Virus record (IMG/VR): IMGVR_UViG_3300006879_000004
Location: 1 to 57,749 of that record
Length of the DNA stretch: 57,749 nt
Reading direction: 5' to 3' (one strand)
Source: a virus
Lineage: Duplodnaviria > Caudoviricetes
Part shown: piece by piece, positions 38,279 to 43,421 of the stretch
Layout of the letters: each line of letters starts with the position of its first letter
Position numbering within the stretch: the stretch's first letter is position 1
Program-made: the position numbers and the translations under genes
Notes under the pieces: model-generated
The model's input: the letters and a program-made list of their open reading frames with translations, nothing else
Told to the model about the DNA's origin: nothing
Database searches by the model: none

Positions 38279-38470
38279 ATGTCAAGGTCATTAAAAAGAG
38301 AAGTCTACAAAGACAAGCCTATTGCGGAGTACAACAAGAGGTTCAGGAGGATAAACAAGATTAGGCTATCAATGGGTAAAGATCCTTTAAATACCCCGGA
38401 GATAACAAATGATTACGATGTGTGTGATTGGAAATATTTAAAAGACGTAAATAACAAGATAAGTAAATGA
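38279..38470 (+). CDS. Small basic hypothetical protein
   Basis: 63 aa, MSRSLKR...NKRFRR...NDYDVCDWK; abuts the MTase stop. Confidence 0.65.
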   Translation: MSRSLKREVYKDKPIAEYNKRFRRINKIRLSMGKDPLNTPEITNDYDVCDWKYLKDVNNKISK

Positions 38471-38524
38471 GAAAATATAAAGGAGAAGTTAAATTTAATT
38501 AAATATGGAGGATAGCATTTATAT

Positions 38525-39517
38525 ATGAGCAACGCAGGAATTTTCGAAAACGTAGAGCACTTAGACCCCAGATACGATTTCTTGGATGAGTATGTACGTA
38601 CCATGTACAGGGCATTTTGGACACCAGCTATTTATGAACAGGGTATTAGAGAGACAGATGTCCCTTACTTTGAAAACAATCTACCCTATGTAGACCAAGA
38701 GGGGATTAGAAGAGGTATAACACTAATAAGCCTAGTAGAGGATAAGGTAAAAACTTATTGGCCAACTCTAGTATTAGATTTACCCCAAACAATCATTGGG
38801 GATGTGGGAGGAGTCTTTGGGCAGTCAGAAGTGACTCATCGGAGGGCGTACCACTCTTTAACTAAGGCTCTTGGGGTGGATCTACAAGAAATGATGAAAC
38901 ACCAAGAACTAGAAGGTAGGGTAAAATACTTAAACAAACACATTGAGCAAGACCCTAAGATTATTGGTAAAAAACGGGTTCTTAAAAAGTTGGTTTTATT
39001 CACAGCACTGGTTGAAAGAATTTCCCTATACACATGGTTCTATTATCTGATGAGTTATGCTCACGCTAACCGAGGTTTAAAAACCATAAGTGCTCTTCAA
39101 TCCACAACATGCGCTGAGGAGAGCTATCACTACAGTTTTGGGATTGATGTAATCAACATCATTAAGGAGCAACACCCTAGTCTGTGGGATGAGTATTTAA
39201 CAGAGCTAGTGGTTAAGAACATTAAAGATGCTCATAAGGCAGAGCTTAGGTTAATAGATTGGGTGTTCGAAAAGGGGGTACCCTCTCATATAACTAAAGA
39301 AGAATTAATAAACTTCATGAACGACAACTTCAATGTGGTATGTAAAGACCTTGGATTAGACCTTAAGTTCAAGGTAGATGCTGACCTTTTTGAAGATAAA
39401 AACTCTTGGTTTAACCGTAAGGTATTTATTACAGGAGAACCTGATTTTTTTGCAGATCCAGTTGGTGGGTATGCTAGTACAGAAGTTAAAGTAGATTTAG
39501 ACACATTTGAATTTTAA
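38525..39517 (+). CDS. nrdB: Ribonucleotide reductase class I beta subunit
   Basis: FWTP, SEVTHRRAY (E/H ligands and radical Tyr), VERISL, EESYH, DFF. Confidence 0.92.
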   Translation: MSNAGIFENVEHLDPRYDFLDEYVRTMYRAFWTPAIYEQGIRETDVPYFENNLPYVDQEGIRRGITLISLVEDKVKTYWPTLVLDLPQTIIGDVGGVFGQSEVTHRRAYHSLTKALGVDLQEMMKHQELEGRVKYLNKHIEQDPKIIGKKRVLKKLVLFTALVERISLYTWFYYLMSYAHANRGLKTISALQSTTCAEESYHYSFGIDVINIIKEQHPSLWDEYLTELVVKNIKDAHKAELRLIDWVFEKGVPSHITKEELINFMNDNFNVVCKDLGLDLKFKVDADLFEDKNSWFNRKVFITGEPDFFADPVGGYASTEVKVDLDTFEF

Positions 39518-39526
39518 ATATAGAAG

Positions 39527-41227
39527 ATGAAATTAGAATTTTTAGGAGATCCGCAATTAGAGTTTTTAAAAGAAGGAAGATACATACTAGAAGGGGAGAC
39601 AGCTCAAGATAGATATAGAGAGATAGTAGATAGGGTAAGAGATTACGAAGAGGAGTATCAAGAGCCGGGACTGGCAAAACGGATGGAGGAGTGGTTAGAT
39701 AAGAATTATATCCAAGTATCAACACCAGTTCTTTCAAACTTTGGTAGAAAAAAGAGGGGTAATATAGGTAATGTCGGATTCCCAGCTTCTTGTAATATTG
39801 TAACAGTAAATGACTCCATCCACGATATATGGGGAAGTGACCTAGAATCAGCCTTATTATCAAAACACGGAGCTGGTGTTGGAGCAGACTTCACTAGAAT
39901 TACACAGAAAGGAACATTGATTGGAGAAGGGTTTAACTCAAACTCTAAGTTGGATTATATAGAAAGGTTCGTAGACACTGCTCAAAAAGTATCTCAAGGT
40001 CATAGGAGAGGGTACTTAACCCCCTTTATCGGTATCGACGATAACGACTTTGATGAACTAATGAGACGTATCGATAAAACAAACTCTAACGAATATGACG
40101 TACTAGCAAACAATACTGTAGGAGTAATATTACCAAAAGGTTTTGACGAACGTATTAAAACCGATAAAGAATTACAGAGGCGGTACATGGTTGTCCTTAA
40201 TGAACGCATGAAAACAGGTCGTGTGTACCTAGTACATGTGGATAACATGAACAAAAACAGTTCTAACGTTTACAAAGAATTAGGAATAGATGTTGAGACA
40301 ACTAATATTTGTACCGAATTTCTACAGCCTTTATTTGATGATATGACATCAGTATGTGTGCTGTCCGCACTTAACTTGGTGCACTGGGATTATATAAAAG
40401 AGCATCCGGAAATTATACGTGATTTGTTCATATTCCTAGATATTGTTAATGAGGAATATGTCAAGTTAACTAAAGGAGTTAAAGGTTTGGAAAAAGCCCA
40501 CCGTGGTGCTAAGATGAAGAGGGACATAGGCGCAGGAACTTTAGGGTTAGCAGAGTACTTTCAAATCAAAGGGGTTGGTTTTGGAGATCCGATGAGCAGA
40601 GCGTATAATAAACAGATATATAAGTTGATGCGGGAGGTAGGAGATCAGACGACAAAAGAACTGGCTGAAAAGTTAGGACCTGCACCCTTAGCTGAGAAGG
40701 CTGGTATGATGGTTAGGAACTGCAGTTTAATGATGATTGCTCCAAACAAGTCAACTAGCTTTTTAGCTAACTCTACATCTGCTGGGGTAGAACCTTTCAT
40801 GAGTAATATATTTAGTAAAAACCTTGCAAAGATTCAGTACATATTTAAGAACAAGCATTTAGAAAAACTACTAGAGGATAAGGGTAAGAACAATAGGGAC
40901 GTTTGGAAGAGTATTGAGGATAACAACGGATCAGTTCAACAACTAGATTTCTTAACAACTGAGGAGAAGAACGTTTTCAGAACATTCAGTGAGGTCAGCC
41001 CTAAAGATATACTAGATTTAGCCTCTGATAGGCAGGTGTTTGTAGACATGGGACAAAGTCTTAATCTGGTCCACCGTAAAAACTATACCATTAAGGACAT
41101 CTATGACATTCACAAATACGCTTGGGATAAAGGTATAAAAACTTTGTACTACATGTATTCCAGCGCACATGCGGTCTTAGAAAAAGAGGGAGAGTCTTGG
41201 GACACTTGTCTAAGTTGTCAAGATTAG
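39527..41227 (+). CDS. nrdA: Ribonucleotide reductase class I alpha subunit (short, no ATP cone)
   Basis: STPVLSNFG, PASC, TNICTE, VCVLSALN, IAPNKSTS, QSLN, KTLYY, C-terminal CLSC. Confidence 0.94.
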   Translation: MKLEFLGDPQLEFLKEGRYILEGETAQDRYREIVDRVRDYEEEYQEPGLAKRMEEWLDKNYIQVSTPVLSNFGRKKRGNIGNVGFPASCNIVTVNDSIHDIWGSDLESALLSKHGAGVGADFTRITQKGTLIGEGFNSNSKLDYIERFVDTAQKVSQGHRRGYLTPFIGIDDNDFDELMRRIDKTNSNEYDVLANNTVGVILPKGFDERIKTDKELQRRYMVVLNERMKTGRVYLVHVDNMNKNSSNVYKELGIDVETTNICTEFLQPLFDDMTSVCVLSALNLVHWDYIKEHPEIIRDLFIFLDIVNEEYVKLTKGVKGLEKAHRGAKMKRDIGAGTLGLAEYFQIKGVGFGDPMSRAYNKQIYKLMREVGDQTTKELAEKLGPAPLAEKAGMMVRNCSLMMIAPNKSTSFLANSTSAGVEPFMSNIFSKNLAKIQYIFKNKHLEKLLEDKGKNNRDVWKSIEDNNGSVQQLDFLTTEEKNVFRTFSEVSPKDILDLASDRQVFVDMGQSLNLVHRKNYTIKDIYDIHKYAWDKGIKTLYYMYSSAHAVLEKEGESWDTCLSCQD

Positions 41228-41231
41228 GTTT

Positions 41232-41886
41232 ATGTATGTAATATATCGAATATTTAATATGGTTTCGGGGCACCTCTACTTAGGGTGCTCCAAAGACTAT
41301 AAAAGAAGATTTAGGGAACATAGAAGAAAATTAAATAAAAGAACTCACGCTAATAGTAGGTTACAAAATTCTTGGAATAAGTATGGTGAAAAGGCTTTTA
41401 CTTTCGAGGTAATATATCAATTTGAATCTGAAAAAAGATATGTATAATAAAGAGATATTTTTAATATCTGTAACAGATAATTTACTAAACTTAGCCGAAG
41501 GAGGGTTAGGAGGGGATTATTCCAAGTTTTGGAGTGAAGAAAGAAAAAACAAACACAGAATAGAGGTGTCTAACCGTCTTAAGAAATACTATAAGACGAA
41601 TAGTACCCATAAACTAAATGCGTTCCTTAATAAAAATGAAGAGGAACTTGCTATTTTAAGGGAGAAATGGTCAGAGTGTAAAAAAGGTTTGAAAAATTGG
41701 AACGCTAAGTACCCGCAGAAAATACTTCAAATTAAAGATGGTGTTGTTATCAGAGAGTGGGATAATGTTTATCAAGTAAGGGATGAATTAGGCTACAGAA
41801 TCCTTTACATAATAAAGTGTGCAAAAAAGTACAAAGGTTTCTACACTCATAAAGGGTATAGTTGGCAATTTAAAAACGAGCTATAG
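41232..41886 (+). pseudogene. GIY-YIG homing endonuclease split by a +1 frameshift
   Basis: VIYRI...LYLG...RRFREH...HAN..LQNSWNKYG in 41232..41447; LNLAEGG and a NUMOD1-like tail (THKGYSWQF) in 41422..41886. Removing one A at 41431-41436 fuses them (FESEKDMYNKE). Confidence 0.85.
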
Positions 41887-41921
41887 TATATTGTAGCTGC
41901 GCAGATTAACATAAACAAAAT

Positions 41922-41946
41922 AAGGGGACCTTTTGAGTCCCCTTTT
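41922..41946. terminator. Bidirectional terminator between converging genes
   Basis: AAGGGGAC-cttttga-GTCCCCTTTT. Confidence 0.78.
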
Positions 41947-41967
41947 CACATTTAACGTCTGTTTGTA

Positions 41968-42351
41968 TTATAGATTCATTCCAAAATGTTTAGCTACCTT
42001 CTTAACCAGATCATCTATCTCTTCCTTAGGAGCACCATTAATTTGAGCTAAGTAAAGTTTAGCTTCCGGTTCCGATAACACCCAATGAATGTTAAAAGTT
42101 TGAAAGTCGTCGAAGTTAACTAAGACTGGCTTTGCGTGATAAAAAGGCAAACCCCAATTCCTACCCGACTCCCGGATTAAAGCATGTTTAGCTACACTCA
42201 AACTCTCCTTTCCTAACTCTATTAAGATGGCCCTAAGGGCAGACTTATCCCCCCTATTAAATAATTCCACACTTAGTTCTAATCTCTTACTGTCTAGCAA
42301 ATCATCAACTGTGATTCCTAGTGTTCTTCCTGATCTCTTAAACTTTTTCAT
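41968..42351 (-). CDS. Hypothetical protein, lone minus-strand gene
   Basis: 127-aa ORF with its own TAGGAA promoter and terminator. Confidence 0.75.
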   Translation of the reverse strand: MKKFKRSGRTLGITVDDLLDSKRLELSVELFNRGDKSALRAILIELGKESLSVAKHALIRESGRNWGLPFYHAKPVLVNFDDFQTFNIHWVLSEPEAKLYLAQINGAPKEEIDDLVKKVAKHFGMNL

Positions 42352-42387
42352 TTAACGCTTCGGCATAAATTGTTTTTAACTTAAAGC

Positions 42388-42418
42388 CGAAGTTAAGTCT
42401 TTTATACTAAATTTCCTA
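42388..42418 (-). promoter_or_regulatory. Phage-type promoter TAGGAA-N17-TAACTTCG
   Basis: Minus strand TAGGAA atttagtataaaagact TAACTTCG. Confidence 0.68.
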
Positions 42419-42464
42419 ATTAATATTGTAACAATGTTATTACAGCGTAAAGTGAAAGTTTTCC

Positions 42465-42495
42465 TAGGAAGTGTAAAAGTTATTTATTACATTTG
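42465..42495 (+). promoter_or_regulatory. Phage-type promoter TAGGAA-N17-TACATTTG, ATG 4 nt downstream
   Basis: TAGGAA gtgtaaaagttatttat TACATTTG tgac ATG(42500). Confidence 0.82.
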
Positions 42496-42499
42496 TGAC

Positions 42500-42958
42500 A
42501 TGGAAGAACAACTGACATTAGAACAAGCCATTATTAGAGTATTGGAGTTCAACAAAGGAGGTGGTCAAGATGTAACATATACCCCCAGATGGATTAAACG
42601 AGAGGATTTTAAAAAACAACTGGCTATCTTAAGGGAAGAAGTTAACGAAATTGACGAAGCGTTTGAGAAGAAAGATATGCCAGAAGTGTTGGATGGGTTA
42701 GCTGACACACTTTACGTACTGTTAGGGCTAGTCTCCAGATTAGGTTTAGTTGGGGAAATGGTAGGTGCTTTCAAAGAGGTGTGCGATTCTAACGACACTA
42801 AGATTTGGCATAACGGTATTAACGTAGCTGTGTTTAAAGAATCTGTAGACCCTGTAACGGGGGAGAAGTTCACCAAGATAGGTAAACCTGAGACTTTTGA
42901 ACCAGCCAGATTAGACATTAAGTACCCTTACCTTAAAACACTTAAAGAAGTAGATTAA
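42500..42958 (+). CDS. MazG-like / all-alpha NTP pyrophosphohydrolase
   Basis: LREEVNE...EVLDGLADTLYV...FKEVCDSNDTK...KIGKP; start reassigned to 42500 because of the promoter. Confidence 0.85.
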   Translation: MEEQLTLEQAIIRVLEFNKGGGQDVTYTPRWIKREDFKKQLAILREEVNEIDEAFEKKDMPEVLDGLADTLYVLLGLVSRLGLVGEMVGAFKEVCDSNDTKIWHNGINVAVFKESVDPVTGEKFTKIGKPETFEPARLDIKYPYLKTLKEVD

Positions 42959-42961
42959 CAC

Positions 42962-43210
42962 ATGCGGAGACAACTAACCAGATTTGAACGTAACAAGTTA
43001 ATGTCAATTATAGACAGAGTAAATCCAGTAGCGGAATTAGAAAAGATTGATGAGGATGGAAGCTACGTTTATACAGCTAAAGTAGAAAACATAGTAGTGG
43101 GATTCCTTATACCACAAAGACACACTCGAGTAGGTAGATTGAAGGAACCCCTGTTAGACAGAGAGTTAAGTAGAAATATTTCAGCACATTTAAGATTTAA
43201 AGATGAGTAA
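42962..43210 (+). CDS. Hypothetical protein
   Basis: 82 aa in a tightly packed operon. Confidence 0.7.
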   Translation: MRRQLTRFERNKLMSIIDRVNPVAELEKIDEDGSYVYTAKVENIVVGFLIPQRHTRVGRLKEPLLDRELSRNISAHLRFKDE

Positions 43211-43421
43211 GCGAGGAAAGAGACAATCAGTGAACAGAATGCTGAAGCGTGGTAACGCAGAGGCAAGAGTTAACTACATGACACAGAATGTAGAAATTTG
43301 GAGCCGTACTAAGCGCAGTAAAGAGTTTAAACAACTGCACAGTATTATACCAGCGAAAGAAGCTATTCAAGAAGTATTATCAGAAATGGAGGTCGATGAT
43401 GTCGGAACAGCAGGTTCATAA
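43203..43421 (+). CDS. Hypothetical protein
   Basis: 72 aa, overlapping neighbours. Confidence 0.65.
   Translation: MSKRGKRQSVNRMLKRGNAEARVNYMTQNVEIWSRTKRSKEFKQLHSIIPAKEAIQEVLSEMEVDDVGTAGS

Follow-up and report, generated by a model that had tools for sequence, protein, structure and literature searches.

We analysed the 3′ end of nrdA, the gene for the large subunit of class I ribonucleotide reductase, in the IMG/VR virus record IMGVR_UViG_3300006879_000004 (57,749 nucleotides (nt); hereafter the window, meaning the whole of this stretch). Directly behind this nrdA lies a gene for a homing endonuclease of the GIY-YIG family, and behind that gene stands a second, untranslated copy of an nrdA end. 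The explanation that we favour, with a probability of about 0.85, is that a free-standing GIY-YIG cassette inserted into the last codons of nrdA, bringing a substitute tail for the protein and stranding the native end downstream. The codons concerned include those of the C-terminal Cys pair, described in excerpts of PMC4078304 and PMC5704485 as the shuttle that passes electrons from thioredoxin or glutaredoxin to the active site. Together with the barrel domain and an adjacent nrdB, this pair marks the protein of the window as a class I large subunit. The original prediction, made from the letters of the window, gave the nrdA end and the string downstream of it exactly as we read them, at the same coordinates.

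The boundaries of the insertion were defined by comparison with genomes that lack the endonuclease. A search of public sequencing runs with positions 40800-42400 returned 19 runs that hold part of this segment; only the probable source run holds all sampled words, and in an independent assembly of that run the fraction of the stretch's sampled words present was 1.00. Logan contigs of four runs from four studies (X2, X4, X5 and X6) were compared with the window over 38400-43400. Depth was zero at 41239-41739 in all four runs, with a gap-bridging contig in each. In X2, X5 and X6, position 41208 is joined to 41895 through CTTA, CTTA and CTTG, respectively. The endonuclease-free allele of these three runs reads GAC ACT TG/C TTA (or C TTG)/AGC TGC GCA GAT TAA (slashes at the joints) and encodes WDTCLSCAD* (asterisk, stop codon), followed by the hairpin of the window. 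The expectation that endonuclease-free relatives end in SCAD* ahead of the same terminator was thus borne out in three of the four runs, as CLSCAD* plus hairpin. Flanks of the endonuclease-free relatives are 96-99.8% identical to the window on both sides: the X5 contig differs at 1 of 452 nt on the left (40757-41208) and at 1 of 151 nt on the right, and the X2 contig (depth 74.7) has flanks ~96% identical. Among near-identical genomes the gene is present or absent at one site, as is characteristic of a homing endonuclease. The insertion point lies 19 nt before the native nrdA stop, within coding sequence; unlike the intergenic Seg/Mob type of endonuclease gene, this one does not leave its target uninterrupted.

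The first 19 nt of the insertion supply the end of the translated gene. Compared with the native C TTA AGC TGC GCA GAT TAA, this replacement tail differs at 7 of 19 positions: four differences are synonymous, two make up an exchange of Ala for Gln, and one turns TAA into TAG. Against the flank, in which 1 of 452 positions differs, the tail is far more divergent (Fisher p = 4e-10), and because of this disparity we take the 19 nt to have been imported rather than evolved in place. An intron-less cassette in the last nrdA codons, carrying a recoded C-terminus, had been proposed from the window alone; the joints now give it the form of a 686-nt insertion with a 19-nt tail. The stranded end had been read as CSCAD* (41892-41909). 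Its SCAD* portion, from 41895 on, is native, but the TGT before it (41892-41894) is not ancestral, since endonuclease-free alleles have TTA or TTG in that place. The translated tail, in frame with nrdA, is therefore the foreign-looking one, and the untranslated copy, which is closer to relatives, is the native one, the arrangement expected of an element that replaces gene ends. Within the window the repeat is faint. The two 15-nt ends share 10 of 15 positions; 173 sites in the window match the last 15 nt of nrdA equally well or better. A protein-level tail test, which asked for three or more of the last four residues and a stop anywhere from the nrdA stop to a point 120 nt beyond the endonuclease gene, found SCAD* at 41895 as the sole match, with one or more matches in 13 of 1000 shuffles. 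Because the repeat within the window barely exceeds chance, the case rests on comparison with other sequences.

More distant relatives point to the same polarity. The end of nrdA was read in 22 loci at 37-76% protein identity, 12 from IMG/VR and 10 from metagenomes; some of the 22 are near-duplicates, two (L012 and L015) are copies of Molly_1 and phi4:1, and L019, a 20% partial match, was excluded. Ends were also read directly in Molly_1, Colly_1, phi4:1 and two IMG/VR contigs that recur as L007 and L010. The scan of metagenomes with NrdA gave relatives at 56-76% identity only, which are too distant to define the insertion. A C-x-x-C motif lies within the last six residues in all 22 relatives and in the window. 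The sequence ends in C-A-D* (C-x-x-C-A-D*) in 17 of the 22, in C-S-D* in two (L020 and L021) and in C-E-G* in one (L017). Most of the 22 have a hairpin 3′ of the nrdA stop. The stranded SCAD* is the family consensus and the translated SCQD* a minority form; the endonuclease-free form of the gene is both the common and the ancestral one.

The arrangement recurs in other phages. A profile of intact endonuclease relatives was scanned over IMG/VR, and the best 80 of 354 loci were kept. An nrdA homologue stands directly upstream of the endonuclease in six of these 80 (L031, L032, L033, L034, L037 and L059), of which L031 and L032 are identical to each other. The nrdA genes of the six are 23-34% identical to that of the window, and the two parts of the window's endonuclease are 32-44% identical to the endonucleases of these loci. 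L031-L034 are the four best of the best 80 of 354, and the only ones among them that are at least 34% identical to P0002, the first sequence of the query alignment, and reach residue 194 or beyond of its 217. The tail test found extra tail copies in L031 and in L034 (7 of 1000 shuffles each). In L034 (= L111), nrdA ends TGT GCG GGT GGT TGT GAC GCA TAA, giving the new tail AGGCDA*. After the endonuclease comes GCT GGT GGG GGT TGC GAT GCG TGA GGC TGT GAC GTG TAA and then a terminator; the endonuclease open reading frame (ORF) runs in frame into this stranded old tail, AGGGCDA* GCDV*. The endonuclease-free L112 and L154 (89% protein identity) have TGT GCT GGT GGT GGA TGC GAT GCG TGA GGC TGT GAA GCT TAA, again followed by a terminator; the stranded tail of L034 matches this end. 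By blastn, L111 differs from its endonuclease-free relatives by an insertion of ~825 nt directly after the first tail Cys codon, and a 10-nt stretch aligns to both tail copies. The endonuclease was present in 1 of 53 loci of this nrdA group.

In the third group, the endonuclease-free L165 reads TCA TGC GAC GGA TAG GTTGG, and L164 (= L031), 96.5% identical to it in nucleotides on the left, carries a 710-nt insertion in place of a single A between GG and TAG of the last nrdA codons. The insertion starts C TGA T GAC TGT GAT GGA TAA, that is, with a new stop and a spare, wobble-recoded DCDG*, and the endonuclease ends on the old TAG of nrdA. Of the loci of this group with a readable nrdA end, 1 of 78 has the endonuclease (L229 and L231, in which nrdA ran off the contig, were left out of the count). 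By alignment, then, endonucleases of one clade are placed within the last 1-7 nrdA codons in three phage groups, and in all three the left end of the insertion brings substitute codons and a stop, and native codons are left stranded at its right.

Several side observations concern these and related loci. A comparison of L164 (3633-4338) with L165 and L167 showed L164 to be closest to L165 on the left of the insertion (96.5% identity, against 84.6% to L167) but closer to L167 on the right of it (88%, against 84% to L165). Such a mosaic around the endonuclease gene has the look of a conversion tract and is what co-conversion of flanking sequence would give. The string GACTGTGATG comes just behind the functional nrdA stop in both L031 (2444-2458) and L034 (2442-2456), ahead of endonucleases with 34% identity to each other; in L034 it folds into a small hairpin with Ts behind it. 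The shared string may represent a conserved left cassette end or the relic of a tail (DCD..). In many relatives of the L031 nrdA (L175-L243), the next gene starts within ~10 nt and has, by reading, a thioredoxin-like motif (..SAPWCGPC..), so that the likely reductant of the Cys-pair tail would be encoded beside nrdA in those genomes. Elsewhere, in L020 (3775-4037; NrdA identity 64%, end CVSCSD*), a different endonuclease gene (NUMOD4 9.4e-10, with a weak HNH_3 match) begins 2 nt past the nrdA stop, and the contig stops inside it, so that any stranded tail would lie off the contig; a second endonuclease family is therefore also found at this gene end.

The endonuclease gene of the window has its own start, an ATG at 41232, 4 nt past the new nrdA stop, and is not fused in phase with nrdA. 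In alignment with relatives the GIY-YIG catalytic motifs are present, namely the GIY..YIG-type start, R..EH, E (NKEIFLI) and N (LLNLAEGG), the E and N motifs lying in the +1 frame. The reading frame breaks at a run of six A, whereas relatives of 208-230 amino acids (aa) are intact. The two ORFs are colinear with one protein in an alignment with five intact relatives (208-221 aa), by which the endonuclease is taken as one gene of ~217 codons with a +1 frameshift. The frameshift may be that of a real pseudogene or a sequencing error; unless it is such an error, the copy in the window would currently be inactive. Programmed +1 frameshifting at AAA AGA in the A run was considered and found no support, as the intact relatives need no shift. 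A HMMER search with the C-terminal part (154 aa) returned 66 proteins at E <= 1e-3, with P0002 (217 aa) as the best match at 51% identity, aligned over its residues 66-215; the closer relatives, P0002-P0005, are 41-51% identical. The same part had no match in a single-protein scan of IMG/VR or by tblastn against 50,697 phage records, matched only itself in a word-indexed protein search, and hit no Pfam family above cut-off; a genome-contig scan with P0002 alone was likewise without match. In the whole record this is the only GIY-YIG match.

Neither an intron nor an intein accounts for the position of the gene: the ORF begins after a stop codon, no intron fold or ribozyme was found, and an Rfam scan of 40900-42100 gave three matches, all far below gathering scores and none of them an intron. 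A promoter-like match at 41215-41244 (9/12) was no better than those in shuffles (8 sites against a mean of 11.9). Judging from the sequence, the endonuclease is likely co-transcribed with nrdA, using nrdA's old hairpin as its terminator, and is probably translationally coupled to it. Coordinates are collected in Table 1.

Table 1. Features at and around the nrdA end of the window (positions are those of the window; slash in the A-run row, frame break).
Feature	Position	Strand	Details
nrdB, class I ribonucleotide reductase small subunit	38525-39517	+	Pfam Ribonuc_red_sm 2.8e-30; first of the nrdB-nrdA pair
nrdA ORF as it stands in the window	39527-41227	+	ends TGT CTA AGT TGT CAA GAT TAG (CLSCQD*)
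Native nrdA body (large subunit), to second base of first tail Cys codon	39527-41208	+	Pfam Ribonuc_red_lgC 5e-68
Whole insertion, 686 nt, in place of 4 nt (CTTA or CTTG)	41209-41894	+	from X2, X5 and X6 joints
Cassette-borne replacement tail, T CTA AGT TGT CAA GAT TAG	41209-41227	+	completes Cys, encodes LSCQD and TAG
Endonuclease, 5′ part	41232-41447	+	Pfam PF01541 GIY-YIG 8e-8; PHROG 7168 homing endonuclease 1e-18; premature TAA
A6 run, frame break to +1	41431-41436	+	three-frame view; break at FESEK / KDMYNKEIFLI
Endonuclease, 3′ part: remainder of catalytic domain (Glu and Asn motifs) and putative DNA-binding region	41437-41886	+	stop 41884-41886
Right end of insertion, TATATTGT	41887-41894	+	includes TGT 41892-41894; no counterpart in endonuclease-free alleles (TTA/TTG there)
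Stranded native nrdA end, AGC TGC GCA GAT TAA (SCAD*)	41895-41909	+	untranslated; continuous with nrdA in X2, X5 and X6
Hairpin, terminator-like	41922-41944	.	9-pair stem, 5 G-C pairs; between convergent units
Convergent ORF, 127 aa	41968-42351	-	downstream of hairpin

In the mechanism that we propose, a GIY-YIG cassette inserted between the two cysteines of the NrdA C-terminal redox pair. Its left end carries a short, differently coded copy of the nrdA tail with a stop of its own; lacking such a copy, the interrupted NrdA would have lost the second of these cysteines. NrdA thereby stays full length, with CLSCQD* in place of CLSCAD*, without an intron or intein, and the last four native codons and stop persist as dead DNA behind the endonuclease gene. 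The enzyme would cut endonuclease-free nrdA at or near the tail codons, which it presumably recognises in their native form, and repair would copy the cassette from the carrier phage. The carrier would be immune, with its translated tail changed at 7 of 19 positions, and so probably resistant to cleavage, and its stranded tail without the left half. Cutting, repair and immunity are modelled here on the established behaviour of homing endonucleases, as given in excerpts of PMC2988022. The 19 nt themselves would come from a donor phage that harboured the gene earlier, as the end of its nrdA; such an origin is favoured because the differences lie in the copy under selection and not in the free one.

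A more tentative extension, which may well not hold, is that the codons of the NrdA redox tail have become the special target of one clade of GIY-YIG endonucleases, which would move as a self-contained 'end-swap' cassette made up of a spare tail, the endonuclease gene and the stranded tail. Both homology arms would then be nrdA sequence. Because the stranded tail would serve as the right arm, the cassette could home into any phage nrdA whatever its downstream neighbour, like an intron but with no splicing involved. Repeated invasion and loss would stack dead tails behind nrdA as a fossil record, and each round might alter residues of the tail that face the reductant, such as Ala to Gln.

Nothing need have been imported if the target site was simply duplicated and the translated copy diverged in place under selection for cleavage resistance. 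That no donor with this cassette was found, that the two tail copies are still identical at 10 of 15 positions, and that selection for immunity could favour changes at many positions all fit such a history. It has to accommodate, however, seven changes in 19 nt against ~0.2% in the flanks, and an untranslated copy that was free to drift and yet is the one matching the native allele; moreover, L111 repeats the pattern against L112, its left copy being wobble-recoded and its right copy native-like. We regard in-place divergence as improbable. Still less probable is a reversed polarity, in which the endonuclease-bearing form would be ancestral and the endonuclease-free alleles deletions between the tail copies. 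The X4 joint does have the form expected of recombination between homeologous tails, and the L034 group includes some endonuclease-free genomes with tandem dead tails (see below), which suggests that losses happen. However, the letters at the X2, X5 and X6 joints (CTTA/CTTG) occur on neither side in the window, so these alleles are not simple deletions; the CAD* end is the consensus of relatives; and the endonuclease is absent in all four runs and rare in the other two groups. An assembly chimera, or a gene in plain intergenic DNA followed by a chance SCAD*-like string, would explain why the endonuclease-bearing form was found in the source sample only and why, at the DNA level, so many sites in the window match the last 15 nt of nrdA as well. 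Against this stand the endonuclease-free contigs, which show 41895-41909 to be the real nrdA end in close relatives, the independent assembly of the source run, which holds all sampled words of the stretch, and the same architecture in two further phage groups; artefact or coincidence is accordingly very improbable indeed.

Other points weigh against cassette insertion with an imported tail, or against parts of it. The X4 contig also lacks the endonuclease gene, but it joins 41218 to 41901 and extends only 30 nt past the joint. Its endonuclease-free allele may already have the four synonymous variants, in which case part of the recoding may be standing variation or an excision scar; the joint may be a hybrid tail or merely another placement of the same joint. 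The comparison was made with contigs, in which rare variants are dropped and coexistence of both forms is not visible, instead of reads. Given the frameshift, present activity of the endonuclease cannot be assumed. A donor carrying the cassette was not found in these searches, the nearest endonuclease being 51% identical. The tail test found no extra copies in L033, L037 and L059, three of the six nrdA-endonuclease loci. Finally, C-Q-D* ends occur in 2 of the 22 relatives, L014 and L029, both of them endonuclease-free. An SCQD* end in endonuclease-free relatives was the outcome that the original prediction had named as telling against it, and L029, with CQD* ahead of the window's hairpin, literally presents it; its nrdA fragment, however, is another allele, 68% identical. 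When L029 (1-1535) was aligned with window positions 40997-42057, 156 nt from GATTAA at the nrdA stop onward were 96.8% identical, but the 233 nt of nrdA before the stop, ending GCSSCQD*, only 67.8%. Either recombination left a sharp boundary precisely at the nrdA stop, or the contig is chimeric.

The nrdA of L029 is a 79-aa 3′ fragment and stands beside a minus-strand ORF of 367 aa with a weak MutS_III match (2.3e-6, below cut-off). Import of at least 233 nt of nrdA end, considered from L029, was dropped, as endonuclease-free contigs show identical flanks up to 41208.

Endonuclease-free genomes were also scanned for tandem dead tails as possible scars, by asking, within 48 nt past the nrdA stop, for a Cys with at least one of the next two residues matching and a stop or, more strictly, for the exact three residues and a stop; windows 150-900 nt downstream served as controls. 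Under the relaxed rule a second tail was found at 5 of 28 distinct junctions in the L034 group, 1 of 43 in the L031 group and 0 of 21 in the window's group, in total at 6 of 92, whereas none of the 475 control windows had one (Fisher p = 1.6e-5). The strict rule left 2/28, 0/43 and 0/21, respectively, against 0/475 (Fisher p = 0.026). Related genomes share history, so independent events are fewer than these counts suggest. The tandem dead tails would fit past invasions followed by loss of the endonuclease.

Replacement of gene ends by mobile endonuclease ORFs (mORFs) is known from fungal mitochondria, where, as excerpts of PMC3630166 relate, they carry a foreign C-terminus and leave the native one downstream. 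The cases given there are atp6 of Allomyces macrogynus (as cited in that paper), atp6, atp9, cox2 and nad3 of Glomus, atp9 of Rhizopus and cox2 of Mortierella (PMC3630166). As in the mORFs so described, the endonuclease ORF of the window lies in the 3′ part of an essential gene, with a divergent inserted C-terminus joined to the body, the native C-terminus downstream is the copy closest to relatives, and the differences between copies are largely synonymous. Unlike those mORFs, it sits in a phage genome (a virus record related to Maribacter and Cellulophaga phages) and not in an organelle; only 19 nt are replaced, against tens to hundreds of nt there; the redox tail of NrdA is the target; the ORF has its own start after the stop, whereas fusion in phase is frequent there; and members of a single endonuclease clade keep to the same gene end in phages with nrdA only 23-34% identical. 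The principle is that of the fungal elements; the phage variant recurs in three very divergent groups.

Among phage systems, the Seg and Mob genes of T4 are intergenic and cut hundreds to thousands of bp away, with mobE between nrdA and nrdB (excerpts of PMC2988022). As with these, a free-standing endonuclease gene lies by nrd genes, probably depends on transcription of the gene upstream, has a tight stop-start arrangement, and is present or absent among close relatives; the insertion here, unlike theirs, lies inside coding sequence, where the codons and stop that it displaces are made good by the element itself. In Aeromonas phage Aeh1, as far as excerpts of PMC3045599 and PMC2988022 go, insertion of mobE splits nrdA and function is rescued by new tails. 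Both cases have a free-standing endonuclease gene in a phage nrdA without intron or intein, with insertion-derived sequences that rescue function, but the Aeh1 gene is cut mid-way and its two polypeptides reassemble, whereas here the last codons are displaced and a single full-length NrdA remains. Endonucleases at exchange boundaries are described for ICP1 in excerpts of PMC10448857. In the literature searched, with subscription journals and supplements outside its scope, no phage case of an endonuclease-borne replacement gene end was found. A further parallel is the mobA/gene 60 cassette of T4, where an endonuclease gene and a sequence that changes this endonuclease's target move together; what changes the target in that case is a translational bypass insert within a topoisomerase gene rather than a replaced gene end.

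To our knowledge, homing endonucleases have been thought to enter essential genes only under the shield of an intron or intein, and otherwise to stay between genes. The phage element enters the coding sequence itself and pays the cost with a few substitute codons and a stop, the cheapest possible repair; the C-terminal Cys pair of NrdA, where it sits, is sufficiently conserved to make a good target. This links intronless homing in phages with the end-replacing mobile ORFs of fungal mitochondria. It also provides three natural pairs of alleles with and without the endonuclease (window/X5, L111/L112 and L164/L165) for testing recognition and immunity. For annotation, past invasions could be recognised by a dead copy of a gene's final codons shortly behind an inserted ORF or behind the stop, and the last residues of a phage NrdA can be foreign in origin.

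The nearest named relatives of the window are the Maribacter phages Molly and Colly and the Cellulophaga phages phi4:1 and phi17:2. At the nucleotide level its nrdA is 60-80% identical to that of these named phages (15 records matched), and the nrdB-nrdA order is the same in Molly, Colly and phi4:1. From nrdA onward the order in the window is the GIY-YIG ORF, the +1-frame ORF, TATAT, TGT AGC TGC GCA GAT TAA, the hairpin and the convergent ORF. The hairpin originally stood 12 nt past the nrdA stop and is present in the endonuclease-free contigs and in L029; an exact search for it in IMG/VR gave no match. In an X2 contig, 131 other letters replace 134 nt at window positions 43209-43344, a further local replacement polymorphism near the junction of the ORFs 42962-43210 and 43203-43421. 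Of the short X2 contigs, some match no more than 41084-41148 and others break off at 40826 and 40858, continuing into unlike sequence; from these loose contig ends at 40826-41148, there seems to be a divergent second nrdA allele in the X2 sample.

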